Positions 1 to 60,079 of a stretch of 64,000 bases of DNA are shown piece by piece (the first letter of the stretch is position 1; each line of letters starts with the position of its first letter). Both the position numbers and the translations under genes were made by a program. Under the pieces are notes generated by a model. That model made no database searches, had not been told where the DNA came from, and saw nothing but the letters and a program-made list of their open reading frames with translations. The DNA comes from Blasia pusilla (taxonomy: Eukaryota). Where the stretch lies: positions 9,114,001-9,178,000 of the forward strand of contig CM114271.1 of the NCBI GenBank assembly GCA_050084515.1, read 5' to 3'.

Positions 1-573
1 TTTTTCATGAGTTGAGACGGATCATGCGACCGATAGCTCCCGGTTGGGAGTATCTCGGTAGTCACATCACCGAGTCGTATGATGTACTAGTTGGAGGAGC
101 AATATTGTACCCGATGGGTTTTCGGATGGATTCTTGGATCGAGACAAGCGTCTTCTTGAGACCATGTTGGCAGTCCGGGATGGACGTATGAGCCAAGTTC
201 TGTGAGATTTATTTCGGGGCTCGACCAGAGGGTCTTCCCCAACAAAGTGTTAGCATCTGTGGGCTGGTTTTAGTGGAGTAGTCACTTGGCCAGGAGACTT
301 TTGGAGGGTAATGTTTCTGCTATGGATTCTCCTGCGCATGAGGAGGTAGAGGAGGTCCCTATTTTTGCAGCATCCTCATCGTTGGATGTGCCACTTTGGA
401 GTTCAGGCAGTGCACTACGGCAGGAGGCTAATCGCCTAGTGCAGGAGGCTTGGTGTGAGGCTATTATACCTCACGAGGAAGAGGAGGCCCCACGGCGGAC
501 TCCTACTTCTGGTCCAGTTGGGTTATCCCCTTTGGATACTGCATCCATTGTATGGCAGTATCCGCAGGAGGGT

Positions 574-1520
574 ATTTGTGTGTTAGATCTCTTTGGTGGG
601 ATTAGCACTGGTTTGGCTGCAATGTTGCAGGCCGGTATTCCTGTGTGGAGATACGTGTATGTGGAGCGAGATGAGACGGCCCAGAGAGTCTCATCTCGAC
701 ATATTGGTCAGTTGATGCGGAGATACCCTGAGTTGTTGCCGCCATCAGGTATTCGTGGGTACCAGCGTGCTTTACCATCACACATTGCATTGTTGGGGGC
801 GCAGGACCTTGAGAGGGTTGGTCCTGTGGATTTGGTGATTCTTTGGATGGCCATGTCGTGGTCATACACGTCTTTGGTCGTGGTGAGGGATTACATGACC
901 CTAGGTCTCGATTGTTTTGGGAGATGTTACGGGTGTTACGACATCTTCAGGTTCATCGCACACGTGCTCTAGCTTACATTCCGAGAATGTTCCATTGTTG
1001 GGTGACACTCGACCCGGATGATGGCGAGTGTTCATGAGGTGCGGTCTTGGATTGGACCAGCGGTGTTGTTGAATGCAGCGAGTTGGCTCAGCGTGCACAT
1101 CGCCCACGCTTGTGGTGGACAAACTTGTTGCCTAGGGAGGTTCTACGTCGAGCATATGATGCAAAGGCGGGATCCTCGCCTTACGTGGATAGTATCTTGA
1201 TCTTTGGGCGACTTTCTCAAGTGGTGAGGGTTATTGATCGGTCACCCATGGCGGTGGTGAACCGTGTGGGCACCCTAGGATGGCACTACCCACATTGTGA
1301 GTTTTCCCGCGTCACATGCCTACAGGGAAGGTGGCCCCGGGCTTGTATGGGATTCTCATGTGCGCGGCGGTTGGTGGAGCCTAACGCGATGAGAGAGAGC
1401 GTCGATGGGATTTACTATCGGGCGTGTGGCGGTTGCTTCTATTTCGAGGCTTCATGACGTCATGTGTTGGGTCGGGCCATGGACCTGAATTGTTTGACTT
1501 GGATTTTGAGTCTTGGTATG
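574..1520 (+). pseudogene. DNMT3-like C5-cytosine DNA methyltransferase domain within the gypsy polyprotein (frameshifted)
   Basis: Ordered motifs across frames: I VLDLFGGISTG; II YVYVERD; IV VDLVI/GWPCRG (GWPC 845-856); GLHDPRSRLFWEMLRVL; VI ENV (983-991); VIII HRPRLWWTNLLP; X RHVLGRAMDLNCLTWI (~1458-1505). Confidence 0.9.
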
Positions 1521-1869
1521 GCCGAGCGGCGTCGACTTGGACTATGTCTGTGGGTCTTCCACCCTTGTAATGAGCTCGATGGCTACCGGGGACGGTAGAG
1601 GCATCGGTGGGGCAAGGAGAGTAGTATTTTGCATCCTTGGAGTAAATGGGATGTAATGGTGGGCATGTGGAGTTGGTTGCTCATCTTTGGTGGTGGAGGA
1701 GTTATTTGCTCAGATGATGGTGTAGCTAAGGGTGTACGATCTTGTGAGGGGGTTGCGTAGCGACCAATGGCATCGCCCTCTCCTCTAGTGTGCCGGTGGA
1801 GGAGACTTGGGAGCCATTACTTGGGCCCAAGCTTACGGGAGGTGAGAAACGACGCTGACACAGTTCCTA

Positions 1870-4862
1870 CGTGCTTATAGGAGTTGTTTTGCCTTTAGCA
1901 TGAAGGAGTTGGGTTCTCTGGTTGGACCCGGTATACGGATTGATTTGGCTAGTGATACGCCAATCTTCCGTCGTCCCTACCGATATAGTGATATGGAGAG
2001 GGACTTGATTGAGTAGGACGTTGGACCTTTTGGAGGCTGGATTAGTGGAGTTGTCGAATGGAGAGTATGCATCCCACTTTGTCATGCTGCTAAAAAGGAT
2101 ATGCATGGCAACTACACGGATAGGCGGATGTGTGGAGATTACCGTCCTATCAATCGGCAAACCAAGGCCAATAGGTATGCCATGCCTACACCTGAGGAGA
2201 TCTTTGATGTGGTGGGACAAGCAAAGATTTTCAAGATTTTGATCTTGAGGCAGATACCATCAATTGCCGATTCGGGAGAGTGACAAGGCCAAGACAACAT
2301 TTTGGGGTGTCAACTCATGGCAAGGATTGTTTGTACCCGGTGGAAATTCTTACCCTTTGGGTTGAAGAATGCACTGCCGAGTTTCAAAGAGTGATGGGCG
2401 GGATCCTAGCAGGTTGGATTTTGTTCGGTGTTACATTGATGATATCTTGGTATTCAATAACACGGTGGAGGAGCATCAGATACATTTGCAGATGGTGTTT
2501 GAGAGGTTGAAAGCTCATGGTCTACGTTTGCATCCAGGAAAGTGTAAGTTCTTCCATGAGGATGTTGAGTACTTGGGTCATGTGATCTATCCAGGTGGTT
2601 TGGGAGTTCAGCAAGCAAAGGTGGAGGCTATTGCACTTATTCCACGTCCGGTAGATGTGAGTAGAGTTCGAGCATTCATGGGATTGGCGAACTACTATCG
2701 GAGGTATGTGAAGGGATTTAGTGCTATGGCAAAGCCTTTGAACCAATTGCTGAAATCACATCAAGAGTGACACTGGGGAGATGATCAGGAGAGAGCTTTT
2801 GTGGAGCTTAAGGCCTAGTTGGTGGCGGCGCCTATCTTGAGGAGACCTATCAAAGGGCGCCCATTTCAGTTACACACTGATTGGAGTAGGTTGGGACTTG
2901 GAGCGGTGTTGACACAACATGATGATGAGCACATGGAGTTTGTGGTGGCCTATGCAAGTCGTTCGAATAATGCAAATGAGTCGCGCTATATTTCATATGA
3001 GGGAGAGTGCTTGGCAAGAGAGTGTGGGTGGCACACTTTAGGTGTTACTTGTTTGGCACCCAGTTTACCCTTGTTGCGATCACCAACCGCTCAAGTGGTT
3101 GATGGAGTCGGACAAGCTTACAGGGAAGCTTGCACGGTGGGCTCTTATCTTACAAGAGTATGACTTCCAGGTGGTACATAGACCTGGAGTTGCCAACCTT
3201 GATGCTGATGGGTTGAGTAGGAACCTATGTACTAGCCAAGAGGATACAACAGGGGCTAGATGGCATGGCGAGGTTGATGAGGAGATGGTGCCAGGTTGGC
3301 ATGCATCCGCCTTTTTATGTTGGTTAGGGGTGGACTCTAGTATGGAGGACCACGTGATATCTTACTCTAGTCAGAGGGTAGATGGCCAGCCTTCAGATCC
3401 TAAGGTTGGAGATAATGGTACGGATCAGCGTGATATTCATGATGATGCGTTGGTGTTGGAGTTCCTACGGACCGGTAGGGTGCCAGGCATAGTGAGTGCC
3501 AAGGAGCGAGACCGTGTTCTTCAACGTGCTAAGAGGTATCGATTGAGGGAACACATATTCTCAGCGTGTGGGAGGATGGTAGAGTACGTAGTAGTGCCAC
3601 ATTTGGCTCAGAGAGCGCGACAGCGACATGCCCATGAGGAGTTGGGACATTTTGGGGTAAAGCGTACGTATAGCTTACTCCTTGGCCAATATTGGTGGCG
3701 TGGCATGCATACTCAGGTGCAGCAGTTGGTGTCACGTTGTATGGTTTGTGACCGGGTGAGGGCATCATTTAATGCCCCTACACCACAATTACACCCCTTG
3801 CCTATTATGGGGTTGGGTTACCGTTGGAGTGTGGACTTTGCGGGACCGTTACCGTTGACTGTACGACATCATCGATATGTGTTGGTGATGGTGGAGCACT
3901 TCTCCAAGTGGATTGAGTTGGTGGCATTACCGGACAAGGCGAGTGAGGGAACGACGTATGCATTTCTGGATAGAGTGCTTAGTCATTTTGGTGCACCAGC
4001 TGAAGTGCTGACCGACCAGGTCTGAGTTTCAGTGGTGAGTTTCAGGTCTTGTGTGACAAGGCGTTGATTGATCATCGGACCACGTCTCGAGAACATCCGA
4101 GGCGGATGGTTTGGCTGAGCGTGTGGTTCAGACGGTGAAGAGGGCATTGCGCAAGTATGGCCTCTGAAGGGCCATCTTGAGCCAGGATATTTAGTTGCCA
4201 TGGTTAGCCATGGGGTATAGGTTCAGTCGCCAAGCATCCTTGGCTTCCTTCTCACCTTATTTTATGTTATACGGCCGAGATCCACACTTGCCAGCAGCAA
4301 TTCGTCGGGAGTCTAGTGAGGTGGTGAACCTTGATGACCCGAGAGATGTGGATGAGGGTGTGTTCTCAACGAGCGGAGCTCTTTCGGAGAGTTATGCCCA
4401 TGACCTTTGAGAATCTTGCCATTGCTCAACACAGGGATACGTTGCGGTATGCAACCATTCGAGGTGGAGGTTATCGACCATCAATTCGTAGGTTCCATGT
4501 GGGGGACTATGTCTATTTGCAGCAGATTGCCCCAACAACATTGGATGTGACGGCAGGCCGCACTATTTTGAGTCTTGCGAGGTGTTAGCTTCGGAGTTCT
4601 CATGTTGGAGGGTCGTGATGGAGTTGTTTGGAAGGACCATGTGCGTAATTGTGCGCCATGTCATCTTCCAAATGTGGATGGTATCATTGACCCAAGCTTA
4701 GCCATGATATGTGCTAGCTTGAGGTGCATGTTGTGTGGGTCTGTGCGGTAACGGCCCGTATGTTGGTGTGTGATCGGTGTTCTAGGGGTTGGCACATGAT
4801 GTGTTTGACTCCACGTTTGGATGTTGTTCCTCTTTGGAAGGTGGGTTTGTCCTCGATGTACT
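1870..4862 (+). pseudogene. pol: Gypsy pol remnant: RT, RNase H, integrase, C-terminal PHD finger
   Basis: ORF fragments 2009-2242, 2101-2283 (RMCGDYRPIN), 2369-2770 (YIDD), 2819-3163, 3042-4025, 4331-4588; colinear with and similar to 5689-8166. Confidence 0.92.
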
Positions 4863-5036
4863 TAGGAGAGGTAGATGACTTGATCTTTGCATGATATGGA
4901 TTACGGATGTGCGACTAACAATGGGGCAACCTAGCACCCGGCCTTTCGATTCGGGCACCCAAGAAGGTGTATAGCATGTAGTAGATGTATAGGGCTACCC
5001 GGGAGTTAGAGGACCTAACCGCTTGATTAGGGGGCG

Positions 5037-5617
5037 AGTTGTGGTACACTTGCGTTTGTGGATACTCGTCTATGTTATGTACGTATGTGAGTATGGTATG
5101 TCGGCGATGTATGTTGTATGACGATGTGGATTCGCACGACAGCTGTCATGACCATACGGATTATGTTGTAGAGTATAGTGTGCTAGTAGAGGTCATTCCT
5201 TATGTAGGACCGTAGTGGATTGGTAGAGATGCGGTTCCATACATAGGGTTGGGGTTACTCGGTTGGGGTGAGTTTCCCAAAGAGGGGCCCGCTCTTAGGT
5301 TGGAGGATATAAGGTGGAGTGCACTCAAAGAACAGTCACTTCTTTGAGTTGAGCCTGTTGCATTGGGAGTTAGCCTTGGTAGTGAGTAGAGCTCTTGGCT
5401 ATGGTGTTTCCCGCAAGCTTCGACCTAGATTCTCCCATCGTGGAGTGGGTTTGGCTCGATTGTATGTGATTGTAAACGTGTTTTATGACAGTAGGTCTTT
5501 CACGGATTTCAGTTGTGGTACACTTGCGTTTGTGGATACTCTCGTCTATGTTATGTACGTATGTGAGTATGGTATGTCAGCGATGTATGTTGTATGACGA
5601 TGTGGATTCGCACGACA
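5037..5617 (+). repeat. 3' terminal structure of gypsy copy 1: ~106 bp block (5037-5142) repeated at 5511-5618 around a TGTCATG-initiated segment (starts 5144)
   Basis: Near-identical direct repeats AGTTGTGGTACAC...TCGCACGACAG; internal junction GACAGCTGTC; preceded by AGGGGGCGAG. Confidence 0.88.
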
Positions 5618-5619
5618 GG

Positions 5620-8166
5620 AGAGATTGCTTGTATCAGTGGCGGTTCTTACCATTTGGGTTGAAGAACGCGCCTGTAGAGTTTTAGAGAGTGATGGATAGG
5701 ATTCGGGCTCACTTAGATTTTGTACGATGTTACATAGATGATATTCTTATCTTCAGTTCCACGGTTGAGGAGCATGAGCGACACTTGGAGGAGGTATTTC
5801 GGCAATTGCAGTTACATGGATTGAAGTTACATCCAGGCAAGTGCAGATTCTTTCAGGAGCAGATTGAGTACTTGGGACACATCATATATCCGAGTGGGTT
5901 AGGCGTTCAGCAGACGAAGGTAGAGGCTACTGTGCAGATTCCACGCCCTACAGATGTGAGTCGAGTCCAAGCATTTCTTGGACTGGCAAACTTCTATCGA
6001 CGGTATGTCAAGGGTTTTAGTGCGATCGCAAAGTCTTTGACATTGTTGAGGAGACTTGATCAAGTGTGGTTGTGGGGAGATGATCAGGAGCGAGCATTTC
6101 AGGAGCTCAAGGACAGGTTGACGTCCTCACCCATTTTACAGAGACCGGTTAGGGGTCGCCCATTCCAGTTACATACGGATTGGAGCATGTTGGTTCTAGG
6201 AGCAATGCTTACTCAGAGGAATGACAAGGAGAGGGAGTTCGTTGTGGCTTACGCGAGCCGATCGAACAACATTGCAGAGGCGAAGTACAGCTCCTACGAG
6301 GGAGAGTGCTTGGCTGTAGTGTGGGCCGTGGCACATTTTAGGTGCTATTTATTCGGCAACCCTTTCACACTTATCACTGATCATCAGCCGCTGAGGTGGT
6401 TGATGGAGTCCGACAAGCTTACGGGAAAGCTTGCCAGGTGGGCTCTATTACTACATGAGTATGAGTTTGAGGTGGTTCATAGGCCAGGTCGGCTGAACCA
6501 GGATGCGGATGGGTTGAGTCGTAACCCATGTCCGAGTCAGAGAGACGACACAGGAGCTCAATGGCACGGAGAGAGTGATGAGGAGATGGTGCCCGGTTGG
6601 CATGCATCTGCCTATCTTTGTTGGTTGACTACGGCAGGTCATCCACAGGTGATGACTCCAGTGGTGGGGTTGGATGATGAGTCTTTGGATCCGGAGGTTA
6701 GTGAGGAGGCGATAGGTGGTCGTGATATCCATGACGAAGTGGAGGTTGTGGAGTTCTTGCGCACTGGCGTCATTGCGAGTACAGTGAGTGCTAGGGAGCG
6801 GGATCGGATCCTACAGAGAGCCAAGAGGTTCAGGTGGGAGGGGACTCACATTTTTCGGGTATGGGGAGATGGTAGGATACGAGTGGTACCTCATCCTTCC
6901 CAGCAAGCACATGTAGTGCGACATGCCCATGAGGAGTTGGGACATTTCGGAGTAAAGCGTACTTACAGCTTACTCCAGGTTCAATATTGGTGGCACGGCA
7001 TGCATACTGGGCTACTGCAGTTTGTGGCCAGATGTATGGTATGTGACAGAGTGCGAGCATCCTTCAATGATCCCACTCCGTAGTTACATCCTTTGCAGAT
7101 TATCGGTTTAGGTTATCGGTGGAGTTTAGACTTTGCGGGACCTTTGCCATTGACAGGGCGTCATCATAGGTACGTGTTGGTCATGGTGGAGCATTTCTCC
7201 AAGTGGATAGAGTTGGTGGCACTACTAGACAAGGCGAGCGAGGGAACAACTTATGCATTTCTAGATTGTGTGCTTAGTCACTTTGGTGCACCGGCGGAGG
7301 TGTTGACTGACCAGGGTACCGAGTTCAAGGGAGAGTTTCAGGCCTTGTGTGATCAGGCGTTGATAGATCACCGCACCACGTCCAGAGATCATCCTGAGGC
7401 GGATGGGTTGGCGGAGAGAGTGGTACAGACGGTGAAGAGAGGATTGCGCAAATATGGCTTGCAGCGGGGACAGTTGAGGGAGTGGGACCTACAGTTGCCA
7501 TGGTTAGCTATGGGTTATCGCTTTAGTCAGCAGGCATCCTTGGCGTCATTTTCACCGTACTTTTTGCTCTTTGGGAGAGAGCCAGATTTACCTGCAGCGA
7601 CTCGACGTGACATGGCGGAGGTGTTAGATCTTGATGATCCAGATGTGTGGATACAAGCATGTTCTCAGAGGGCAGAAGTTTTTCGTAGAGTTATGCCTAT
7701 GGCCTTTGAGAACTTACCTATTTCCCAGCATAGAGATACATTGAGGTACGCAACCATTCGTGGAGGAGGTTATCGTCTAGGGATTAGGAGGTTTCATCAT
7801 GGAGATGACGTGTATTTACAGCAGGCGGCACCCATGATGCTAGATGTCACTACAGGGCGCACGATCCTACGCGTGCGCGAGGTATTATCGTCCGGAGTCC
7901 TCATATTGGAGGGACGGGATGGTATGGTTTGGAAGGATCATGTGCGTAATTGTGCGCCATGTCATCTTCCGAACATAGATGGGACGGTGGATTCGAGCTT
8001 GGCAGTGGTGCCTGCAGGCTTGAGGTGTATGTTGTGCGGATCTGCGAGGGGTGCAGCCACCATGTTGGTATGTGATGGTTGTTCTCGAGGGTGGCATATG
8101 TCATGTCTGACCCCCCCTCTTGATGTGGTTCCCACGGGACGATGGATGTGTCCGAGATGTGTATAG
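5620..8166 (+). pseudogene. pol: Gypsy pol 3' half (RT-RNase H-integrase-PHD) in a single frame with two in-frame TAG stops
   Basis: ORFs 5485-5685, 5689-7083 and 7093-8166 share one frame; YIDD 5731-5742; integrase SLDFAG/TDQG/AERVVQT; PHD CMLC..CDGC..HMSC..WMCPRC 8026-8160. Confidence 0.93.
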
Positions 8167-8259
8167 GGTGTGTGCGCCCCTTCATGAGTGACTCCCATGT
8201 GTGTTAGATACTTTTGGGACTCTAGTTAGGTGAGTAGAAGGAGCTAGAACAACAATCTG

Positions 8260-8710
8260 CAATTTAAATGGGATCATTGGTGCCATTCGGACCAAGATAG
8301 TGGCAGCTCACATATCGAGTTGGGACAGAAATTAGCTTCATTTGTCCATGCTTACAACTCGGTGAGAAGAGCACCACAGGGAAAAGTCCCTACTTCTTGG
8401 TGTATGGGCGAGAACCCTCTCCCGGTAGTAGAGTTGGAGTTGAAGACTGATCATACTCTAGAAGGGCACTTCCAACCTGAAGGTGGCAAAGATAGCAAGT
8501 GGATATGATTGATGCCCTAGAGGAGGAGAGAAAGGCGACATTAGAGAAGACCAAGGCCGTTCAAAGACCAAAGGAAGATGAGGTTTGATAACCGAATACA
8601 ACATGATCAAAGTGAAGGAGGGGACATGGTCTTTGATGTATGATAGTCGACCCCAAAAGTTTCCAAGAAAGCTACACATTCGATTGTTTAGGCCTTATCG
8701 GGTGAGGAGC
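8260..8710 (+). pseudogene. Integrase C-terminal fragment of a different, non-chromoviral gypsy element
   Basis: WDRKLASFVHAYN...YFLVYG...LMYDSRPQKFPRKLHIRLFRPYRV resembles the C-terminus of ORF 60182-61060. Confidence 0.7.
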
Positions 8711-9020
8711 GGTGAGGAGATCAGTGAGATCAGTGAGGAGCAAAGAGGAAGTAATTATCACCGAGGAGATCAGGTGAGATCGTAAGGAGCGGTGAGGAGA
8801 TCAGGTGAGGAGCGGTGAGGAGATCAGGTGAGATCTGTGAGTGAGAACAGGAAGTAATGATCAGGTGAGAGCAGCAGGAAGTAATTAGCGGTGAGGAGAT
8901 CAGGTGAGATCAGGTGAGGAGCAGCAGGGAAGTAATTATCAGCTGAGGAGCAGCAGGGAGATCAGGTGAGATCAGGTGAGGAGCAGTTGAGGAGATCAGG
9001 TGAGATCAGGTGAGGAGCAC
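8700..9020 (+). repeat. Degenerate short tandem repeat (GGTGAGATCA / GGTGAGGAGATCA / GGAAGTAAT units)
   Basis: Directly visible reiterated 10-13 bp units. Confidence 0.85.
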
Positions 9021-10338
9021 CCAAGGGAATCTCGAACCAGCTTGAGAAGAAGCAAGCTTGGGAAATGCTAGTGAGAACAGGTTGAAGTAGATGAGGTCGA
9101 AATTTCAGGCAGTAGATGCCTTGGAGTAGATGCTTAGGGGGAGGTAGATTTTTAGGAAGGTAGGAACCCAGAATACCAGAGAAGCTCAAGGAAGAAGAGG
9201 GCTCTCAACTTCACTTATAAATACTCTGGTGGGTTTGCTTGAAGGGGCATAGACATCTTTGTTGGCTAGTAGACACTCGATCTCTTGAGCCAAGCTAACC
9301 AAAGACAGTTTTGTGCTCCCAGTCTAGGTAGTGTGTAGTGTGCTTGAAGGGGGCTGAGACTAAGAAGGTCTCTCATGTACTCTATGATTTTGTGATACAC
9401 AGGAGGTAGCCCTGTGAAATGAGTTCACACCATTGCCTTGTATCCGAGTATGTGCATGATTGAGTGATGAGTTGGGGAAGGGCTTGATGTGAAGGAGATT
9501 CTTGGAGATGATTCAACTAATCATTCAAAAGTGCAGGGAGAGGACAAGAGGATCTACCAAGAGAGGGGAGGCAAGCTTGGGTTCCAAGATTGTGCTCCAC
9601 CAAGGTGTGCTTGGAAAGCTTTCATTCGCCCCACCTAAGCTTGGCCTTTGACACCAATCACATGATTACTTCGAGGTGTGACAACTTGGACTTCGGGTCT
9701 GGTAAGTGATAAGAGTTAGTGAGTGGAGAGAGAGAGAGGGTCATGCTTGAGCTCCTGCAGGTAGAAGACCATGGGCTCGGCTGTTAAGTCTCCTACTACC
9801 GAACAAGAAGGGAGAACAGCAGATCAGCAAGGTACGAGGAGAAGAAGAAGGTGATTGCACTACCGATCGGTTAGGAGTCGGGTGTACTTTAGAGGATGCC
9901 TTGGTACATTCAACTAGTCCAAGGCAAAGACATTGGAGGACCTTATCTTTGCCGTGGTCATCCTTGATTTGTGAATTCTAAGTAGAGTGTGCTTGTTGGG
10001 TTCCACTGGCCACTCCACTCAAAGCACTCAAGAGAAAGGAAGGAGTTTTGGTTAGTAGGGTGAGGATAGGATTGTGATCTTGAAGTGGAGAGAGTTCCCC
10101 AGCCTCTTAAGGTAAAGAGGTGGGGTTCTGATGAGTTAAGGAGTATATCTTGCAGATCTGACTTCTGATCTGGCCCTAAGCTCTTACATGGGACCGAACT
10201 GGTGGAACTAGCAACAGTTTCACCTGGGTTATGTGCTGGCCATGTATTACCTGGTGAGACAGGGTGGTAGGTCATATCAGAGAGATGTGATATTTTCTAT
10301 CTAGAGTTGGGGGGATCCAATTGCCAGCTAGGGGGGCG

Positions 10339-11098: not shown

Positions 11099-12999
11099 TG
11101 GGTCAGCAAGAAGCAACCTACATGGTTTGCTGTCGTTGTAGCGTTGGAGTAGAGTGACATGCTCTGTCCTCTTATTCTCCTTGATGCAAGATTTGGTGTA
11201 CCGGGTCATAGACTGTTGCCAATGGAAAGCATCCGACCTTTCCCTCTCTGGTTGAACCTTTCCACCCCAGAACACTTCCCTGATAGCAATCCACCCAGGT
11301 TGTGCATTGTCCGCCATGAATCCATAAATTTCCGAAGATGGCCTTTTGTTTTCCTTCACCACCTCCAGTAAGAGTAACCAACACATCTTCAAACTGCCAA
11401 CGTTATCTGCTTTTATCTCACAGACAAATATAGTTTTGAGTCCCTTCTCCACATGGTCATAAATGTGAGCACCCATGGTCAACCATCCATTCAACACTCT
11501 ATAGCAAATATCAAAGCTTACCCAGCTACCGTAAAGATCTTCCCCTTCCTTCATTCGATCTATAAGATCGAGGCCACTCAACGGCCCTGTCGTTGATATT
11601 TTGAAGACATAAGCCCTCGATCCTTTCCCTCTCTGGCCCATGAATTGACATCTCTAAATAAATGGAAATTTGGAGTTGGCCTTGATTCTGGAAATGGCAT
11701 CTATTTCAGCCGTCTTTCCATCCAGTACCCGCATTTAATGGAGCAAATTCCGGAAGCATTCAGGATTAGCGAGAAATGCGAGATTTTCCCATAGTTGTTT
11801 CTCCTCAGAAGCCGTGATCTCGCCCTACCCAGGGATTCCAAGCAATTGTTCACAAATTTGTGATATTGTTGTAAACTTGATCAGTCTGGGCTTTGATCTC
11901 GGAGAGTTTCTATATACCTCGGCCACTTTCTTTGCCACATCCTCTTGATGTGTCTCTGAATTGCACCGGTAACAAGATGAATGTGGAAGCCAACATGAAC
12001 TGCGAGCTTGGTGTACTCGGACGTAGAACTGAAGTCGTGCACAATGAAAAATATCTATGCAGGACACGCTCCAATGTAGAAAGGGGATGCCTGACAATGA
12101 GGACATCGATGGCCTCACGACGGTATGGTCGCACTGACCTCATATGGAGTTTTTGCATTCTTAGGAGGGAATTGCAACGTATTGACTCGCCCATTGCGCT
12201 CTAGAAACGGGCAGCCTGGACTTCTACACTCCATAGCTCCAATACATTGGTGGCGAGAAACAATCCAAGGACCATTTGGAATTGAAGCACTAGTTCGTTG
12301 AAGCCTGCACCATCGATGACAATCAGACTTTCTATCCATACCCTTCAAGCATTCTCCATCTTTCTTTTGAGCAGGACCAGCAAGTGGAGGCAACTCAAAA
12401 ATGCAATTACCATCGTACGTGGGTAGCATCTCGTCCACAAAAATATGCTTGAACATTTTAAAGGGAAGAGACGACATCAAAATATTTCCTGATACTCGCA
12501 AGAGGAACGAGTAGGCAGACACAAGGCCCGGTTGGAGTCCGACAGATCCACGTAGGTTGACGACATCCGGAATGTCTTCAGGAAGTACAACATTGTTACA
12601 AACGTGTGAAGTTGGAGTTGATGCCAAATCTACTAAGCAGGGAGTGGAAAACGTAGAGCTCGGTGCACTAAGAAATTTCGGACCGTCTACTTGGGAAACA
12701 GAGGAATTCAGAGGCAAGCCATAAACTCTGTATTCACCATTTTTTAGAGGTAGGAGATTCCATACTTTACAGTCTGCTATCATTGGCTGGAGTGTCTCAC
12801 CTACAACGTCCTCCGTATCGTCCATCCTAACATCCTTGGAAACAAAGATGGTTCCAATTTGGGGAAGAAATTGCACTGAGAGGAAATTTTCATCCACTGG
12901 TATGTAAGACTCACGAGCTTGCGGTCGAATTATTTTTGATTGAGGAAGGGTCGCTAGATGATTGCCACAAGTGAGTGTCACATAATTATCCATTCCCAA
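11099..12999 (-). pseudogene. MULE-type DDE transposase, N-terminal Cys/His-rich region and catalytic core (frameshifted, cut by the gypsy insertion)
   Basis: WVSFD...FMADNA...ERSDAFHWQQSM (D, D and C/DxxH signature) in ORF 10952-11641; CIGAMECRSPGCPF in ORF 12115-12999. Confidence 0.78.
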
Positions 13000-13080: not shown

Positions 13081-15084
13081 TTTAATTTATAGTGAATAGT
13101 GACCGTTATTCTCCTGACAGAATTTGACTGACAAGATGCTGTTTGGTAGATAAGATTGTCTAACGCAATGGATTCAATCCTATTGCAACCTGTCGGAGTC
13201 CGACGGTTTGCAAATTTTGGGACTCAAACACGTGGGTTGCAAAGCCACGGAGTACCATCTTCTGTTAGAGTCCGAGTGTAACTTGCAACCCGTCGGAGTC
13301 CGTTGGGTTGGTACCCCCTTCCTGTCTGACCTGTCTGATTGGAGTCGGCATCCATGAGACCTTGCATCCATGAGTCCGTTGGGGACTGCGATGGGTTGGA
13401 AAGGCACCTAACCTCGCTTTCTCTTCTGGAGGTAACCGAGTTGCGGGAGGGATCTCGCATCGATTTCTCTTGTCCAATGAACCGTGCAAACCATGAGACC
13501 TTGTAACTCGTCGGAGGTAAAGGGGTTGCCTTGGGACTATGCATTGTCACCTTGTTACCGGAGGACGAGGGAAGCGTGCATCCCGTTGGTTTCTGAGGGG
13601 TTTCCCGGGTTCCTCACCTTGTTACCCCAAGATGAGGGAATCGTGCAACCCGTCAATCTCCGACGGGTTGCGAGGGTACCTCGCCTTGCATCCCCAAGAT
13701 AAGGGAAGCATGCAACCCGTCGAAGACGGACGGGTTGCCTGAGTTCCCACATGCAAATTTCCATAATGGCCGACACGTGGCCGTCTGTACGACCCAACGA
13801 CCCAACGGTCAGCTCAACGGCTCAAAAAGTATAAAAGGCTGAGATTTCGCTCATTTCCGTTTTTCATTTCGCGATTTCATGTGCTCTTCCTCGCAGCAGC
13901 TGACGTTACCTTTCCGCTACCAAACTCAGTTACATTCACACCTTCGCTGGAAGGTTACGAAAATCCAGCACCGACGCTTCCAAGGTTTGATTTCGGCGAG
14001 CCCATCCGCTGGAGGGTCACGACGCTTCATCACGAAACGCTTGGAGGGATCTATCATGCACAGGAGCAAATTAGACTGTCAAGGAGGAAGAACTGACCCA
14101 ACGTGCACCATGACGAGAAAGAAAACACAAGCAACCAAGGTAGGGAGCATCACTCCCAAGTCCATCGGGACTCCTACGTCACCATCTCCAGATCCTCATT
14201 TGGCGAATGAGATAAGGCAACAAGAAACAGAGGTGCGGGAAGGGGAAGCAGATATGCACAGAGAGGAGGTTCTAGCAAAACGTGTTCTTAAGACCCTTGC
14301 TAAGCAAAATTCCGAGGCTGAGGCATCAAAGGCCTTGAAGAAAAGAGCCGTGGACGAGAAACGCGAGACAAAGTGTCTTGACGCCTCCGTCAGGAGAGCA
14401 AAATTGGCGAAAGCTCGAAGGGAAAAAGAAATCGTCATTGAAGAAAGCTTTGCCCGTCCAACAGAGAGTGTTGAGATGCAGGAAATGTCTCCGATGAGGT
14501 CAGGGGACGCCATGAATCTAAAATCGGCTGAGGAAACGGCCGAAGTTCAAGTGACAGACGATGAGGTCATGAGGACAACAAGTGTGGAGATGGTGGACAT
14601 CTCTGAAGAAGCAAGAGAAGAGTCTTCCTCATCTTTGAGTCCGATGGAAGAAATCAACCTTTATTGGATCAATGAGTTTCCTTTGGACTTGCCAAGCTGC
14701 TATCCCAGAGCAATTGGCGGGCCTGGACTTCGACCCAATCTTTGAGCGGGTAAGAAAAATTTGGGTTATGTGAAGGCTCATTATGCAATTCATTGGCGAA
14801 ACACTGTATTTTATTGACTTGGTGCCCATTGAGGCAGGTTGTTAAGCAGATGGCACTGATGGAGGGCCAGAAGGCCCCAAGAATTACACTTTGTTTATTG
14901 CGGACAATGGAGTACGTCCACGAAATTCAGTCGGAGGAGGACATTGCAAAGCTCAAACAATCGGCAACGACTGCATCCTACGTTGACAACTTCCCTCCGT
15001 TCTATGTTCAGCCTTACGATGAACATGGAACCCAAGCTCTGGTGACGGAAGAGGACTTGGAGGCGTTGGGTTATGTGAAGGCTC

Positions 15085-19728: not shown

Positions 19729-22700
19729 TGGGGGAGTTTAAGATGTTGATTGGTGACCATTTCACTATGGAGTATCAAGAGTTCTGAAATGGTGTAGAGT
19801 TTGTGCATCTACGGCAGAGCGGGTCTATAAGCTCTTTTGTTACTGAACTCACTTCCTAAGATGTATGAGTTTGCAAAGAGTTTGAGCTTCTTTAGTGGAC
19901 TAAAGCCAAGTCCAGAAAAGGCCCTCTTTCAAATTTCGGAGTTACCAAATACGTGCGCGGAACTCTTGAAGCCGACAGAGTGGATTGGGGAAAATGAGGT
20001 CCAAGTACCAAGGCCCAAAACAAAGGTATATCCAAGAGGGTTTTGAGTGGGGGTGAGCATGACCAAGGAGAGTCTCTTACTCTAGTAGCAAAACAAGTGA
20101 AACTCCATGCGAAGCCAAAGGGAGGGCAATATCCAAAGTCGGGAAACGGCAAGGTGATATATATGCTACAATTGTGTCGAACGTGGGCACATGGCAAACG
20201 GATGCTCAAAGCCAAAGGTTAGTAATGGGAGTATGATTTTGTTTGATACTAAGTACTTGTCGGCAAGAGGTCTAGAGACATCCCTTCAAGTCACCATGAG
20301 GACGCCCAATTTGGTATATAGTACCTAAGATCCAAGATTACTAATCGCGATGCGATGTTGCTCATTGATATAGGTACTTCGCACTCCTTCTTGACTCCAA
20401 GAATCATGAAGGAGTTGGGATTGTGAACCAGTAAGGCGGACGAGCCCATTCGGATAGGTTTTGTTGGAGGCAAATCTCACCAAACTTTAGAGTTGGTTTT
20501 GGGACTAACATTTGGATGTGGAGTACCTGAGTTGAAGAAGAATTTCACTATGTGCGAGATGGAAAAAATCGATGGAATATTGGAGAACACATTCCTGGCT
20601 CCGTATTAGGTTTACCTATGACAAAGACCATTAAGGCTTAGCATCTTAGTGAAAGGCAAACGGTTGCAAGTCAGGCTGGTTCATGAGGTTCCTGTGAAAA
20701 AAGAGTTGGTGAACGCCATTGTAAGATCGAGCTAGAAGATGGACTTCTCTGCTTGATGAGACAAGTGGAGGAGACTACAAGCGAGAGACACAAAGATCAT
20801 GACTAATCTTTGAGGGGAATCCCAAAAGTGCTCTAAAGAGTAGTAAAGGAATTTGGTGATGTCTTGACGAATGAGCTTCTTAATGAGTTGCCACCACATA
20901 GGGCAGTCGATGATAAGATAGAGGTCATCCCAGGATCTCAACCACCTTCAAAGGCCCCATATAGATTGAATCAGGAGGAACTTGTTGAGTTGAAAAAGCA
21001 GTTAAGTGATCTCTTAGAGAAGGGCTGCATCAGAACTAGCAAGTCACCGTATGGAGCGCCAATTCTCTTTGTGAAGAAGAAGGATGGGAAGATGAGACTC
21101 TATGTTGATTACGGTGAGCTAAATAAAGTGACGGTGAGGAACAATTAACCTCCTATGAAGATCAATGATCTCTCCGATAGATTATTAAGGGCGAAGTACT
21201 TCAGTAGGATTGACTTGAAGTTAGGATATTACCAGATTGAGATTTCCGAAGCGGATGTGGAGAAGACTACGTGTAGGACGAGATATGGCTCGTTCAAGTT
21301 TGTAGTGATGCCCTTCGGTCTACGTAATGTGCCTCCAATGTTCACCATGTTGATGAACTCCATTTTTAATGAGGAGACGGATCAGTATGTGATCATCTAC
21401 ATTGATGACATGCTGATGTATTCAAAGTTTTTATAGGAGCACGCTCGACATCTAAGAGCGGTGTTGTTAAAACTAGGGGCAAACAAGTTTTATGAAATTG
21501 TAGAAACAAATGAGTTTGGGTTGCGCAAGATCAAGTTCTTCGATCATGTCGTTAGTGCTGATAGAGTAAGTCTAGATATGGATAAGGTGAATGTGATCGT
21601 CAAATGGAAACGGCCTTCTACTGTGAAGGGAATAAGGAAGTTCATCGGAGCAGTGCAGTTTTACCAGACTTATGTAAGGAAAATTTTGGGAATAGAGAGA
21701 CCTCTCATTGATTGGACCGCAAAGTTTGCTAACACGACCAAGACCCAAGAAGTGACTTAGGTGTTTAACCGAGTCAAGGAGATCCTATTGCAAGAGCTAG
21801 TGTTGAAGCTGCTAGAGCTCGACAAACCGTTCGAAGTGCATAATAATGCTAGTGATTTTGCATTTGCAGGAATGTTGGTGCAGGAAGGAAGATCTATAGC
21901 GTATAAGAGCAAGAATCTTAGCAATACCAAACAGAGGTGGCCCACTCATAAGAAAGAGTTGTTCGTAGTGGTTCACTGCTAGAGGAAGTGGCGTTACTAT
22001 TTGGGACTTCACAAGACTCGAGTGTTCACCGATAACATATCACTCAAGTATTTTGAGACCTAGGATTGAGTCACATCAAAACAAGTGCGATGGCATGATA
22101 CCTTGGCATTGATGAATGCGAAACTAGTTCATAAGCCAGGGAAGGATAATGTCATTCTAGATATGTTGAGTCGCAAGAATGAGCACATGCCATCAACGAC
22201 GCAAGTCTTAAGAGCAATATTCCCTAAGAAAAAGACCCGGAGAGAAGGATCCATGAAAGACACCCAAGCGAGCGAGTACCTAAGGAAGTTGAAGCACAAT
22301 GAGAAGGTGGCGAACATAACTTTGAGTCATAATTTGCTAAGGTTTAAGTAGAGTAGGATCTATGCGGGCAAAGGCAGGCTGCGGACCAAGGTGTAAGTAG
22401 AATGTCATGAAGGATCCTTGGTAGGATATAAAGGGGAGAAATCCATGTTGGCTGTTCTGACTAAGAGGCTCTTTTAGCCCAACATGAAAGAGGATGTTGC
22501 TCAATTTACGAAGACCTGTGTGACCTGCCAAGCGAAGTGAGTTTCTTATGAAAAGAAACAAGGCTTGCTTCACCCTTTGTCGATTCCAAAAGGACCCTTG
22601 CAGAGTGTGAGTATGGAATTTATTACGAGTCTTCCAAAGTTTGAGGGATACAAGGCTATACTTATGATAGTTAATCAATTCAACAAGTTGGGGAGATTAG

Positions 22701-24950
22701 TGCTAATAGTGGACTCCGCAACGACATGTATAGGTTCTTGACTATTCTCGGATAGTTGGTGGCAAGCTTATGGGTTGCCTAGGAGTATTGTTTCAAATTG
22801 GGATCCAAAGTTTATCAGTGCTTTTTGGAAGCACTTATTCAAAAGGTTTAGGACCAATCTGAGTTTCAGTACTACCTTCCATCCCCAAATAGATGGACAA
22901 ATGGAAAAAGTAAAACTCGATCATGATTCAATACTTAAGGAATTATGTGAGTGTGGATGAGCGAGATTGGGCGAAGTGGCTAAGTATGGTTGATTATTGC
23001 TACAACTTGACCAAGCATTGTGCAATTGGAGAATCTTTGTTTCTTTTGGCATATGGACATGAGCCAGAAGGGCCTCTTGACCTGACCCTTTCAGAGGGTA
23101 CTACATCAACACAGGCTCAAAAAGCAATAGCGGTGTCGTATAGTAAAATCACCCACTATGTAAACTCCTCTATCACTAAGTGTTAGAGAGAGTTTTATTA
23201 GTATTAAGTAAATTAGCCTTGGAAAATGAAATTCCCATGTTTAAACCTCTTTAGGATGACTCATTTGCGCAGGCCCAACTTTAGGAAAAGAGATAATAAA
23301 TAAAAGATGGGATTAGAAAAGTAAAGTAGTGGGGTTGGTGCTTTCATAAAACAAAAGCAAAAGTAGTTTTGGTTGGTGGCTAGGGTTGGTGGGGTAGTTT
23401 GGAAGATATGAAGAGAGTAAAAAAAGATATTTTGGAAGAGATAAGAGGTAATATGCTTGTGTCAAAATGTGATTAGCTAAGCCTTGAGAGGAAGCCATGT
23501 GGCACAAGATAAGATTAGCCCTATTTCGTACTCTTGTGGATCCCTTGTGAATATATAAAGAGGAGGGACCTTCAAGGGTTCATCACCTTCTACTTCACAT
23601 CTTGAGTTTCTCATGTCACTCTTGAGTGTATGGCTTTGGGATTGCTTGCTCTTCCAATGACAGTGAATTATCCTTCTTGGGAGAGTAACTTGACCTTAGT
23701 CTATTCTTTAAGAGTTTTCTTGAGTGTGGTATGTGTGGAGATAAGAGACTTGTTACCCTAGATGAGTTTAGTCATACTAGAAATAGAGGATGGTTTGGCT
23801 TGTTATTTTCCCAATGAGAATGGATTACCCCTCTTGGGAGAGCAACTCCGCCAAATCCCATTATAGAGAAGAGTAGAGGATGTTTGTCAAGTATGGATAG
23901 GGGTGGAGTACGAATTGTGCCAAATTTTCCTTTTCTTAACCCGTACCATGTCAAGATTCTCTTTGTAGATAGGCATTGTTCACTTGCTAACCAGTTTATC
24001 ACTTTGGGGACGCGTTCATGAACCAAGTCATGCAATCTCCAACTCCGGTGATTCTTCCTATAGTCACGTACGGAAGGACATGGGATTGCACTTTGTATGT
24101 CATTACATAGTTATCCATGGACGTCAATAGGCTTGCTTAAGTAGGGTTTAACACTAGTTGTGTTATTTTCCTTGTGTAAAAATGTAAAGTAGTTTACAGA
24201 GATTTCATAGTTAGGAATTTTGGGATTCCATGTTATGAAGAAATGATCGCCTCGGCACTACCATTCGTGATTCCTATCGTGAGAGAATGGAGAGTTCACA
24301 TAATAATTATGTACTGAAAAGAGAGAAATTCTTATAGAGTTTGACTTGCATCAATCATGTCTGTTGCAGCTAGAAGATCCGCCCTTACTTAAAGAAAGGC
24401 TCTTGACACGACAACGGAAGGTTTGGTGCTAGGGATGTGAGAACGGGAAGTGTGGGCAAGAAGAATTCTTGCAAAGGCTCAACCAAGGTATGTTAAGCAT
24501 GCTAAGAAGAGTCGGCGCCAAGTGAGATTCCAAGTAGGGGAGCAAGTGTGGTTGAGTGTGAAGAATCTCACTCTTATGAAGGTTGTCCGCGAAGCTATGT
24601 GCCAATTATGTTGGATTGTATGTGATCAAGGAAAACCGGTTTGAGGATGTGTACACATTGGAGTTGCCAGAAGAGTTCAAGATTCATCAGACTTTCCATG
24701 TGTTATTATTCAAGAAGTGTCTTCAAGATAATGTGTATCTCGAGTGGAGATAGGTGTTAAGACCACAAGAGGTAATCATGAATGAAGAATCGGAGTGTAA
24801 GGTGGAGACCATCTTGCGTTTGAGATATAGGGCCAACAAGTAAGAGTACTTGGTCAAGTGGAAGGGCTACCATGTGAAAGAGGCAACTTGGATTGCATAG
24901 GCAAATCTAAAATACGCGTAAGAGGTGTTGCAATACTTTAAACGGATGTA
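19729..24950 (+). mobile_element. Degenerate chromovirus (Ty3/gypsy): gag zinc knuckle, PR, RT, RNase H, integrase, chromodomain
   Basis: CYNCVERGHMANGC ~20164; LIDIGTSHSF ~20360; YIDD ~21398; integrase ~22400-23130 continuing after 24413; chromodomain VETIL...EYLVKWKGY..EATW ~24800-24930. Confidence 0.9.
23134..24413. mobile_element. Solo LTR (1280 bp) inserted in the chromovirus integrase
   Basis: TGTCGT...ACGACA perfect 6 bp terminal inverted repeat; flanks GCGG/ACGG (4 bp TSD, one mismatch); removing it restores the frame KAIAEGLVLG. Confidence 0.85.
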
Positions 24951-28600: not shown

Positions 28601-30038
28601 AAGCTTCCGCTTCCCTGTGCACCCGACCACGAAAATCATCCTCCCGCTTAATGGAGTCACAATGACTACAAGTGAGGTTCTCAAACCCTCCCCCATTACT
28701 TGACAATCTAGAGCAAAGCTTGTGCCTAAAACAACCTTGTATACATACAATTGACCTACTACTTGGATTGAACACTTGCGCTGAAGTGGTAAGCTCACAA
28801 TCCCAAATAGTTCCTCCTGTCTGATCATCTAGTATGGCCTTCACATCCATCAACTCTCCTCTCCATTGTACGTTTGACTCCCATAAGCCCCAACAAAGCA
28901 AACTTAGTCCAAAATCAATGGAGGAAGCAAACCCACCTTTTCCTAAACTGCTTCCTTCCTTGAAGGCATCAGGGTTAAGGAATTTGGTAATGGAATTTTG
29001 AGACGGAAATAAGTCCCTAGGATCTGCCTTCTTTGGTCTTTCCTTCTTCCCAGACCTCAAGGCAAGTTGGGCAGTGATCTCTCTAGTGTCAAGAGCATCC
29101 AAGTGATATCGACTAACCAACTATTGTCGTAGATTATGCTCCAAATTGGCCTTTCTTGGGCACATGTCTGTGTGCAACTTGCCACAGATTATACATCGTA
29201 CCTTGAACAGGTATGACTTGTGTGCAAACTGCATATCAGCAATAGATGGCATCATAGAGAACACTATTGTCTCACCCCCAACCTCTACATTCATTTTCTC
29301 AACTATTCCTAAACCTACGGTGATATGATGTTCATGATCCCATTGAGGTTGTTGTATAATGTCACTGGGAGAAATCAATGTACTAGGCAGACCCCGTCTC
29401 TTACAAAAATTCTCCTTGTGCTTAGGGTTGTTGAGATGCTTAGTCTTATAATTGTTGAAGCAATTTGCAATTGATTTTAAAAATTGGGAATTAGTTGCAT
29501 TCCCATAAGTCTCCCGACACTCTAAGCACTCTAGGTGCCCTCGGACATCTTGCCCCTCATCCCAAGTTCGCACTCTCCACTTATGCTCATCATATCCTTG
29601 TCGCTTTACCCAATCTTTAAGCTTGCTCCACTCCTCATTCCAACTCTTTCCTGCCACCTCAAACATAAGCAGTGACTCAAATGAACCTGTGACAGGCAAT
29701 GTATCGACTACTTGCTCTTGGGTTGTGGCTTCTGTATGTGATTGAGACCCAACATTTGTGTCCTCCATGGTAGACACAATAGCAGCAGATGAATGCGAGG
29801 ACACAATTGCAACCCCCCCAATACATCTAGAGGCTTGTTGTGCAATCACAAAAACACTCCCTTCAAGTTCACTAATCTCAATGAGGTTCTCAATAGGATG
29901 TCTAACTCTACCAGGTAGCCTATCATCCCAAAAATCAAATTTAAAGTCAACTGCCCTAGCACATCGAGTGCGGAAGTCGGCCAGTGTTTGTCCTTCTTTG
30001 AAGGACAAACACAAAAATTGGTACATCATCCTTCCCAT
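25639..30038 (-). pseudogene. P-element/THAP9-like DDE transposase with N-terminal zinc-finger-like regions (in-frame stops, probable intron ~27870-27960)
   Basis: VPVMFVEDETRIK (~28050-28010), DTLIGFCG, GHASDGDARRRK, DQDPSHNGKK (DxxH), DRQN, GSDCCEIFFS; ORFs 29121-30038, 28374-29120, 27229-27777, 25639-27222. Confidence 0.75.
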
Positions 30039-30433
30039 CCTTTTCTACTAGTCTCACTGAGTTGGAACTGGGGTTTGCCATTTGTACAAGGTATCAAAGG
30101 CATTCAAACTATCATATACGTAGTTCAACCTGTCATGTACCACAACAATAAACAAAAGAGGTCACAAATCAAGGTTTGTTATGCTTCTACAACAATTGAT
30201 AGCCATGCATAACATCAAATAACTATCCTCATTCAAACTTCAAGACTTAATCCATTTAATTCATTACAACCCAATCAAAACGTCCATTCAATATGAGTTA
30301 TAGTTTTGAGTCTGAAGATGCAAAACTCCTGAAAACATAAAGGTAATTTGTGCAAAATCTTACACGTGAAATATGTAATGAGACTATAGTCCCATTGTGC
30401 TTACCTACAAAATTTCTCTATCGTATTCATTAA

Positions 30434-38234: not shown

Positions 38235-38322
38235 GCGCTGGAGGCGGCACTTTCGTCCTTGCAAGGGGAGTCAGGGAAGACTTAGAAGTTTCGTGTCCTT
38301 TTGAGGGGAAGGTTGAGGAAGA

Positions 38323-58051: not shown

Positions 58052-58509
58052 TGTAATGTACAAGTGTTTCTAATTTACAGTCGTTTGTAGAGTTCGATCC
58101 CCAAGAGGACCATTGTTGGATGAAAAGAGAGGGTAAAGTGATTATTATGTTGTAAAAGTAGTGTGGTTGATTATGTAATTCAAATGTAGTATTCCAGTAA
58201 CATCTTCCGATCCTTCTTAGTACCCATGTTTTCTTCTTCAATTCTCTCTAGTGGAATTTAAATCACGCTCAGGCAAATTGTTCTCTCGACATCTAGGAAC
58301 CTCACAGAGATCTCAACAATAAGGTTGGCTTCTCCTACTTTCGGAACTCAATCCATCTTGGCAGGCTACTCTCTATCAAACATATTTCATACAACTCCAT
58401 GTTGATTATTCCATTGATGAGAAAGGTGTGTCTGATTTCACTCTTCACGCTGCAGACCCAAAAAGACTATCCAAACATAAGCATCGCACATCAGAATGAA
58501 TGAATGAGT

Positions 58510-60004: not shown

Positions 60005-60079
60005 AACAAAGCGTTCGCCTACCCCCTTCCTCCTCTTTCAGTCCGCATAAGGTTCGGGCTCATAATAACCGCGCACATG

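Follow-up and report, generated by a model that had tools for sequence, protein, structure and literature searches.

A PHD finger follows the integrase in green-lineage Ty3/gypsy retrotransposons that carry a Dnmt3-like methyltransferase

Introduction

Why does the integrase of a Ty3/gypsy retrotransposon end in a PHD finger, at the place where the integrases of chromoviruses carry a chromodomain? The question is raised by a 64,000-nucleotide (nt) stretch of DNA from Blasia pusilla (NCBI GenBank assembly GCA_050084515.1, contig CM114271.1, positions 9,114,001 to 9,178,000 of the forward strand), here called the window and numbered from its first letter. The window holds two Gypsy copies, copy A and copy B, whose integrase is followed by such a finger, broken in copy A and complete in copy B. 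A sequence-only reading of the window had taken the finger for an alternative chromatin-targeting module and had suggested that, with a DNA methyltransferase (DNMT) domain, it would give one polyprotein both a reader and a writer, echoing the PHD-like ADD domain of animal DNMT3.

The literature already describes both Gypsy elements of green algae with PHD fingers and Gypsy-Dnmt3 elements. According to the Fig. 6 legend of PMC9940879, the polyprotein of REM1 (Gypsy-7a_cRei), a Gypsy element of Chlamydomonas reinhardtii, includes a PHD finger; a passage of PMC8557442 calls PHD "a common accessory domain" in C. reinhardtii transposons; and the relevant part of a preprint (10.1101/2021.11.30.470311) surveys fusions of PHD and chromo domains with transposons, the PHD fusions across 172 genomes. 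Retrotransposon PHD fingers have been proposed, in a passage of PMC6673714, as chromatin-targeting modules analogous to chromodomains; the latter guide integration into heterochromatin (Gao et al. 2008, cited there and in the preprint). De Mendoza et al. (2018; PMC5890265), in their main text, describe KnitGypsy-Dnmt3 of Klebsormidium nitens as combining DIRS-like repeats with Gypsy-like domains. Here we describe the finger of the Blasia element, its relatives across the green lineage, and the methyltransferase that accompanies it.

Results

The integrase frame of copy B ends in a canonical PHD finger

Copy B contains an open frame of 360 codons at 7084-8166 (+), with the integrase core first and the PHD finger at its far end. 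The features of this copy are as follows (L029 is an intact related locus described below; RT, reverse transcriptase).

5623..6640 (+), RT, 3' part only, beginning shortly before the YIDD box, plus RNase H (Pfam and homology to copy A)
6895..7059 (+), integrase H2C2 zinc-binding domain (Pfam PF17921, E=1.8e-14, residues 404 to 458 of the open frame 5686-7083)
7081..7083 (+), in-frame TAG that breaks the integrase between zinc domain and core (a sense codon there in L029)
7114..7395 (+), integrase catalytic core, rve (PF00665, E=3.4e-14, residues 11 to 104 of the open frame 7084-8166)
7396..7962 (+), integrase C-terminal region, with a GPY/F-like stretch, FSPYFLLFGREPDLP, and an SH3-like end, …GVLILEGRDGMVWKDHVRNCAPCH (from the translation)
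7963..8025 (+), linker from the integrase C-terminal domain to the finger, mostly predicted to be disordered
8026-8160 (+), complete C4HC3 PHD finger (Pfam PF00628), followed by one residue and the stop TAG at 8164-8166

The finger matched Pfam PF00628 with E=4.1e-11 and 43.1 bits (curated cut-off, 24) over residues 315 to 359 of the frame, and its ligands are spaced C-x2-C-x11-C-x2-C-x4-H-x2-C-x14-C-x2-C, which bears out the sequence-only reading of a complete C4HC3 finger in frame with integrase. No chromodomain family was matched by Pfam at E<=0.01 in 7084-8163, and the finger stands after the integrase C-terminal domain, the spot of the chromodomain in chromoviruses; the claim that a PHD finger takes the place of a chromodomain at the integrase end therefore holds. 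No ADD family was matched by Pfam either, and the finger is a single canonical PHD, so that the architectural likeness to the ADD domain had to be given up.

When the 70 C-terminal residues of the copy B integrase were modeled with AlphaFold2, the predicted local distance difference test score (pLDDT) was 84 to 91 in the finger and below 50 at residues 4 to 18 (nt 7963-8007), a 15-residue part of the linker. The strands predicted at residues 37 to 39 and 46 to 48 would form a two-stranded sheet as in the cross-brace zinc fold, and Foldseek placed the finger model on solved PHD fingers in the PDB with a root mean square deviation (rmsd) of 0.6 to 1.1 Å over 45 to 48 columns. The copy B finger is thus a genuine canonical PHD finger, flexibly linked after the integrase C-terminal domain. 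The names GPY/F-like and SH3-like are borrowed from typical Gypsy integrases and would suit the block at 7396..7962, which alignments show to be conserved across the family.

Copy B is not an intact gene. Its RVT_1 match is limited to model positions 147 to 205, the RT_RNaseH match being complete, and the copy is colinear with the second open reading frame (ORF) of L029 from residue 220 to the end, at 64% identity. Homology to relatives begins inside RT at 5623 and ends at about 8160, close to the stop, and no match was found between the 3' flank (8167-9600) and any related locus or the 3' end of copy A. Because homology starts inside RT and stops just after its stop, copy B is an internal fragment; its finger does lie in frame with integrase, but fragmentation and the TAG at 7081-7083 leave no intact gene.

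The finger is present throughout the family and is under purifying selection

We fetched 240 related proteins, of which 213 had an alignment that reached the finger. All eight zinc ligands are kept in 183 of these 213, and the remaining 30 either break off within the finger or carry a ligand mutation. Among the matches listed, PF00628 was present in 119 of 120 long relatives and, by hand count of the table, in 87 of 120 relatives of near query length; many of the 33 near-length relatives without it cover 56 to 93% of the query and end before the finger. The eight ligands, together with M37, P60, and W64, are invariant in a 43-sequence alignment whose members were hand-picked among the loci and fetched proteins. 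The finger is therefore widespread, and its absence from most family members, which the sequence-only reading had named as a refutation, is not observed.

The named relatives among the matches listed all belong to the green lineage. They are from Calypogeia fissa (81% identity), Marchantia polymorpha (76 to 79%), Klebsormidium nitens (53 to 54%), Sphagnum fallax, Chromochloris, Haematococcus, Tetrabaena, Pleodorina, and Volvox, with the window element closest to the liverwort sequences; no C. reinhardtii protein is among the relatives named. One further relative in the list was labelled as a bacterial metagenome-assembled genome and is taken for misbinned DNA. An integrase tree of 73 rows (a quick IQ-TREE run with SH-aLRT support and a midpoint root) has the finger on both sides of its deepest split; the tree is effectively unrooted, and no direction of change is therefore claimed. 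Every sampled branch of this Gypsy clade carries the finger.

Selection was estimated by the Nei-Gojobori method on codon alignments, for which 15 sequences were prepared and 8 compared. Between L029 and L044, two open copies, the ratio of nonsynonymous to synonymous substitution rates (dN/dS) was 0.05 in the finger (7 nonsynonymous and 18 synonymous differences) and 0.03 in integrase residues 1 to 290. Between copy B and L019, L047, and L060, the corresponding ratios were 0.07 to 0.11 and 0.09 to 0.10, values that are rough since dS is about 1.7 to 3. Decayed copies within one subfamily gave 0.3 to 1.3, as neutral decay predicts. Purifying selection on the finger is about as strong as on the integrase.

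Intact relatives reveal the layout of the element

When metagenome contigs were scanned with the integrase-finger protein, 80 loci were returned (L numbers; fetched proteins have P numbers), most of them decayed, with L029 and L038 open. ORF1 of L029 (976-5085, 1,369 amino acids [aa]) encodes an aspartyl protease, which Pfam matched weakly, and a C5 methyltransferase (PF00145, E=1.8e-13), and ORF2 (5086-8229, 1,047 aa) encodes RT, RNase H, the integrase zinc domain and core, and the PHD finger. The two share one frame and are parted by a single in-frame TAG, and the intact layout is gag, protease, Dnmt3-like methyltransferase, in-frame UAG, RT, RNase H, integrase, and PHD finger.

The stop context reads UAG CAG UUA in L029 (5083-5091) and UAG CAA UCA in L038 (4661-4669), and both fit the tobamovirus-type leaky-stop motif, UAG CAR YYA (PMC3542737). 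The boundary between ORF1 and ORF2 could be located in 42 loci, 34 of which have an in-frame TAG (30 loci) or TAA (4 loci) at no more than 10 codons from the aligned position, followed by CAA-CCN or CAR-YYA; the strict CAR-YYA follows the stop in only 3 of these loci. Many proteins consist of ORF1 only, with lengths of 1,228 to 1,451 aa, in line with a conserved stop. This conservation suggests programmed read-through, as in some retroviruses.

Eight of the 80 loci were searched for repeats. Rather than the two identical long terminal repeats of a standard Ty3/gypsy element, split direct repeats were found: in L019, repeat A lies at 2622-2958 and 11375-11711 and repeat B at 11256-11370 and 11711-11825, and the full A-coding-B-A-B arrangement occurs in L019, L058, and L006. 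L060 has the B pair only, and the pattern was not found in L012, L047, L005, or L067. Self-comparison of the L029 and L038 contigs revealed no terminal repeats, and the ends of these two elements are probably missing from the contigs.

Copy A is a longer, decayed copy of the same kind

Copy A runs past the left end of the window and lies about 3,300 nt upstream of copy B, to which it is roughly 73 to 78% identical. Its features are as follows.

565..1523 (+), decayed Dnmt3-like cytosine methyltransferase domain (tblastn, family hidden Markov model [HMM])
1852..3284 (+), decayed RT and RNase H (tblastn with relatives; Pfam RVT_1 and RT_RNaseH on ORF pieces)
3414..4724 (+), decayed integrase, with H2C2 zinc domain, core, and C-terminal domain (Pfam, tblastn)
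4725..4859 (+), broken PHD finger (DNA alignment with copy B, translation)
5037-5142 (B1), 5143-5510 (A2), and 5511-5618 (B2) (+), 3' split direct repeats, at which copy A ends

The methyltransferase was located by tblastn with the N-terminal parts of proteins P0133 and P0225, which are colinear with 565-1523. Motif I, LDLFGGISTG, is visible and motif IV reads GWPCRG, among frameshifts and stops. Pfam gave nothing at E<=0.01 on the methyltransferase-like ORFs of copy A, so that a family-specific HMM was needed; it matched 568-1274 (best E=7.7e-24). The proposal that a DNMT accompanies the finger is thus borne out for copy A, in decayed form, and not for copy B, which has none. Within the integrase, the ORF at 3042-4025 matched Pfam Integrase_H2C2 and rve, and the tblastn match spans 3414-4831. 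The finger, already described as decayed in the sequence-only reading, has indeed lost 1 nt relative to copy B, contains an in-frame TAG, and lacks the last Cys pair owing to a frameshift; mean column identity to copy B over 4560-5000 is 78%.

The B1 and B2 repeats are 97% identical over 108 nt, and the whole of 4860-5618 has homology to the 3' ends of 13 related loci, all of which end B-A-B; the 5' A repeat lies beyond the window. Both window copies are dead. In both, the Pfam domains RT, RNase H, H2C2, and rve stand in Ty3/gypsy order, and the Dnmt3-like domain together with the A-coding-B-A-B repeats makes the window element a member of the KnitGypsy-Dnmt3 kind. The window copies are thus two dead copies of a green-lineage Ty3/gypsy element of the Gypsy-Dnmt3 kind, an assignment that rests on domain set and repeat arrangement as compared with the published description of the K. 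nitens elements.

Copy B starts a few bases past the point at which copy A ends (5618-5623), in the same orientation. Insertion of copy A into the RT of copy B would explain this junction and would put the 5' part of copy B beyond the window, a scenario to which the greater decay of copy A runs counter.

Base composition was measured over 565-8166 (+) of the window and in L019, L029, L038, and L050. The coding strand has more G than C, with a GC skew of +0.25 in both window copies and of +0.11 to +0.24 in the relatives, the intact L029 included, and CpG is depleted in the family (observed/expected, 0.55 to 0.72). Decay was rejected as the source of the skew in copies A and B; since intact relatives show it too, it is a family trait. 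The third Gypsy of the window (58445-63998) has no such skew.

A Dnmt3-like methyltransferase accompanies the finger in two positions

The nearest solved structures to the methyltransferase of L029 are the catalytic domains of DNMT3A, DNMT3B, and DNMT3C (E about 9e-8), and its FxGxG, PCQ, and ENV motifs are kept. The family-specific HMM found the domain in 55 of the 240 proteins, and the precomputed Pfam DNA_methylase column has it in 9 of the 120 long relatives listed; the Pfam model misses most of these domains. No K. nitens protein was among the matches listed in the search for DNMT-domain proteins.

More than 4.6 kb of sequence was available upstream of the integrase in 28 of the 80 loci, and 25 of these have the methyltransferase, 3.2 to 4.2 kb upstream and on the same strand; the family HMM found none in the other three (L009, L012, and L016). 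Two layouts exist. In layout 1, seen in the window and in P0133, P0225, and P0135, the order is DNMT, RT, RNase H, integrase, and PHD finger. In layout 2, seen in P0163, P0189, P0199, and others, including those of volvocine algae (Tetrabaena, Pleodorina, Volvox) and Haematococcus, the methyltransferase stands between RNase H and integrase.

The gap between RNase H and integrase was analyzed in the 76 proteins whose RNase H and integrase zinc domain could both be located. It is long in 33, of which 32 have the methyltransferase in the gap and all 33 have the finger. It is short in 43, of which 4 have an N-terminal methyltransferase and most others begin just past the conserved stop. P0209 and P0138 have the finger and room for a methyltransferase, and none was found in them. 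In the integrase tree, 37 of 40 short-gap rows, the window copy among them, fall together with P0138 on one side of a branch with SH-aLRT support of 100, and three short-gap rows fall among the long-gap rows. The finger is thus on both sides of the split while the position of the methyltransferase differs.

The co-occurrence of methyltransferase and finger across the lineage, of which the sequence-only reading had proposed a survey, is accordingly real. Its claim that reader and writer share one polyprotein stands at most for a read-through precursor not yet cleaved by the protease, since in the window subfamily the conserved UAG, RT, RNase H, and integrase lie between the two.

Solved PHD fingers most similar to this one are readers of unmodified histone H3

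Among the matches listed, the best PDB sequence matches of the copy B finger were CHD4 PHD2, PHF12, DPF2 and DPF3 PHD2, KDM5A and KDM5B PHD1, PHF21A (BHC80), ATXR5, AIRE, BAZ2A and BAZ2B, and UHRF1. The top Foldseek matches (rmsd, 0.6 to 1.1 Å; identity, 35 to 50%) were DPF3b, DPF2, ATXR5 with H3, UHRF1 with unmodified H3, BAZ2A with unmodified H3K4, BHC80, KDM5B PHD1, ORC1b with unmodified H3, and CHD4 and CHD5 PHD2. These nearest solved fingers are all readers of the unmodified H3 tail and none is an aromatic-cage reader of H3 trimethylated at lysine 4 (H3K4me3); fingers of the ING, BPTF, and TAF3 types were absent from the 60 sequence and 50 structural matches listed. The strand M-L-x-C-D and the loop P-x-G-x-W, which these readers also have, are invariant or nearly so in the 43 sequences. 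The general statement that PHD fingers read H3 tails therefore holds for the nearest solved relatives of this finger, by sequence as by structure, and the copy B finger is likely to be a histone-tail reader, as judged from its sequence and predicted fold.

Other features of the window

A third Gypsy copy, unrelated to the other two, lies at 58445-63998 (-) and has the domains RT, RNase H, H2C2, and rve. There is neither a PHD finger nor a chromodomain on its integrase, which ends past an SH3-like stretch, and a further long open frame follows downstream. This element could act as an internal control family for a comparison of insertion sites.

A Cys/His-rich open frame at 30434-31144 (-) matched PHDvar_NSD (E=1e-4) and PHD (E=2e-3) weakly and looks like an exon of a host multi-PHD protein and not like part of a Gypsy element; the long frames downstream of it (25639-30044, -) are interrupted by many stops as read here and were not matched by Pfam. 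Another retroelement remnant lies at 20915-22723 (+), an RT/RNase H-like stretch only distantly similar to the family RT (23 to 28% identical by tblastn). A 67-nt unit is repeated three times in tandem at 13547-13747 (+), with 69 to 76% identity to the first, and an open frame of 758 codons at 38317-40593 (+) has no Pfam match at E<=0.01.

Discussion

Our results demonstrate that a canonical PHD finger follows the integrase in every sampled branch of this Gypsy clade. As to what it does, we give a probability of roughly 0.55 to a targeting role, drawing on sequence, predicted structure, and analogy. The finger would bind the N-terminal tail of histone H3, most likely unmodified at K4 (H3K4me0), and would tether the complex of integrase and complementary DNA (cDNA), the intasome, to nucleosomes in that state, which would bias the landing sites of new copies. 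It would thus do the same job as the chromodomain of chromoviruses by way of a different mark, and the methyltransferase may act afterwards, on the cDNA or on the new insertion.

Several points weigh against this reading. Acidic residues in the first loop contact K4 in readers of H3K4me0. Most members of the family have such residues, many of them reading PDDE..M, and the window lineage has GSARGAATM, which lacks them; the specificity of this subfamily may therefore differ. Complexes of UHRF1 with PAF15 and Stella, which are non-histone N termini, are among the structural matches of the finger. Synonymous sites are saturated in most pairs between subfamilies, and several dN/dS values are rough or undefined. 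Finally, one window is uninformative on insertion preference, and the copies sit amid other transposon remains.

One alternative is that the finger serves the methyltransferase. It would then recruit the Dnmt3-like domain to chromatin unmethylated at H3K4, as the ADD domain does for animal DNMT3, and the element would methylate its cDNA or the site of its own insertion. The two domains do occur together (25 of 28 loci and 32 of 33 long-gap proteins), and in layout 2 the methyltransferase is directly N-terminal to the integrase, which makes a product consisting of DNMT, integrase, and PHD finger conceivable. The methyltransferase is nearest to DNMT3A, DNMT3B, and DNMT3C, with PCQ and ENV kept in L029, and the nearest solved fingers read unmodified H3, the state read by the ADD domain. 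In the window subfamily, however, the conserved in-frame UAG, RT, RNase H, and integrase separate methyltransferase and finger, and protease processing would probably part them further. At least two proteins (P0209 and P0138) carry the finger, have room for a methyltransferase, and show none. The finger always follows the integrase, whereas the methyltransferase occurs in two different places; this constancy argues that the finger is tied to the integrase. By analogy with ADD-DNMT3, such a module is conceivable, but we consider it unlikely.

We hold it to be equally unlikely that the finger binds a non-histone partner, either a host protein or an H3-like N terminus, for nuclear import, intasome assembly, or escape from silencing. 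The UHRF1 neighbors bound to PAF15 and Stella peptides speak for such a partner, as does the loss, in the window lineage, of the acidic first-loop residues common in the family. On the other side, the closest solved fingers among the matches listed are all primarily H3-tail binders, and the M-L-x-C-D strand and the P-x-G-x-W loop hardly vary across the family.

Reading of H3K4me3, which would steer integration to promoters or other active chromatin, appears more doubtful still. Many PHD fingers do read H3K4me3, and the UHRF1 entry 3sow, a structural neighbor, was solved with an H3K4me3 peptide, but fingers with the aromatic cage of ING, BPTF, or TAF3 are not among the 60 sequence and 50 structural matches listed, and the sole Trp near the His ligand directly precedes it, where the listed relatives have F or Y. 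That the finger is a chance motif, a host exon captured in a single copy, or a functionless relic, as the death of both window copies might suggest, is refuted by the Pfam match (E=4e-11), by conservation of the finger in 183 of 213 relatives, a set that spans liverworts and volvocine algae, and by a dN/dS of 0.05 between two open copies.

In comparison with known systems, the closest likeness is to KnitGypsy-Dnmt3, which, by the main-text account of de Mendoza et al. (2018), shares a Gypsy domain set with a nonrearranged Dnmt3-like methyltransferase inside the coding region and DIRS-like A-coding-B-A-B repeats. The K. nitens proteins KFL_015960010 and KFL_005000010, with integrase and finger, are 53 to 54% identical to the window element and may be the published copies. 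The window family differs in being found also in liverworts, mosses, and chlorophytes and in having its methyltransferase in two positions (before RT, and between RNase H and integrase). The term PHD does not occur in the main text of PMC5890265, outside of which the Fig. 4c artwork and the PDF supplements may show a finger; PHD, KnitGypsy, and PF00628 are likewise absent from one supplementary text file of that paper. A search of the full-text literature for Gypsy-DNMT3 or KnitGypsy returned only PMC5890265 and a preprint (10.64898/2026.05.21.726589), which, in the accessible part of its text, gives Gypsy-Dnmt3 one sentence and has PHD only in an acknowledgment. The searchable literature text contained nothing on a PHD finger on a Gypsy integrase with DNMT3 in liverworts or mosses. 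The pairing of finger and Dnmt3-like domain, its spread to bryophytes and chlorophytes, and the two positions of the methyltransferase are thus unreported in searchable text.

REM1 is likewise a green-algal Gypsy element with a PHD finger in its polyprotein, but, compared by its figure legend only, it has the PHD before the integrase and no DNMT is named. The EpiLTRs of Cymbomonas and Euglena, as presented in the accessible part of the preprint 10.64898/2026.05.21.726589, similarly unite DNA methyltransferase domains and a histone reader in one retrotransposon with long terminal repeats, with DAM and DNMT4-like domains and a chromodomain there as opposed to a Dnmt3-like domain and a PHD finger here. 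With chromoviruses, the window family shares a small domain after the integrase C-terminal domain, a histone-tail reader there and a likely one here, that is presumed to tether integration to a chromatin state; the fold is chromo there and a zinc cross-brace PHD here, and the mark is H3K9me there and probably the unmodified H3 tail here. The ADD domain of animal DNMT3, DNMT3L, and ATRX resembles the finger as a zinc-finger module that reads the H3 tail and goes together with a methyltransferase of the Dnmt3 type. It is, however, a composite of GATA-like and PHD-like parts fused directly to the methyltransferase, in contrast to a single PHD that sits on the integrase, about 3.2 to 4.2 kb downstream of the DNMT in relatives. 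The likeness to ADD is one of analogy, not of homologous architecture.

A broader picture, which we regard as improbable, would be that of an old green-lineage Gypsy clade with a kit for reading and writing chromatin, in which an H3K4me0-type reader on the integrase picks silent, H3K4-unmethylated chromatin and a Dnmt3-like writer marks the copy or its cDNA. Layout 2 may keep writer, integrase, and reader on one mature protein, and the methyltransferase would have been moved or gained twice. If true, the kit would be a transposon-built, convergent counterpart of animal ADD-DNMT3, with the finger as its constant part.

If the finger does tether the integrase, this Gypsy clade would have arrived, independently of the chromoviruses and their chromodomain, at a second solution to the same problem, reading another histone state. 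Given how steadily the finger is paired with a Dnmt3-like methyltransferase, the family lends itself to the question of whether transposons choose their own chromatin and mark it afterwards. One tractable host is Marchantia, for which chromatin maps exist and in which many copies of the family are annotated as ordinary genes. Gene models called "PHD-type domain" or "DNA methylase" that match this family in liverworts and mosses are transposon remains, not host chromatin regulators.

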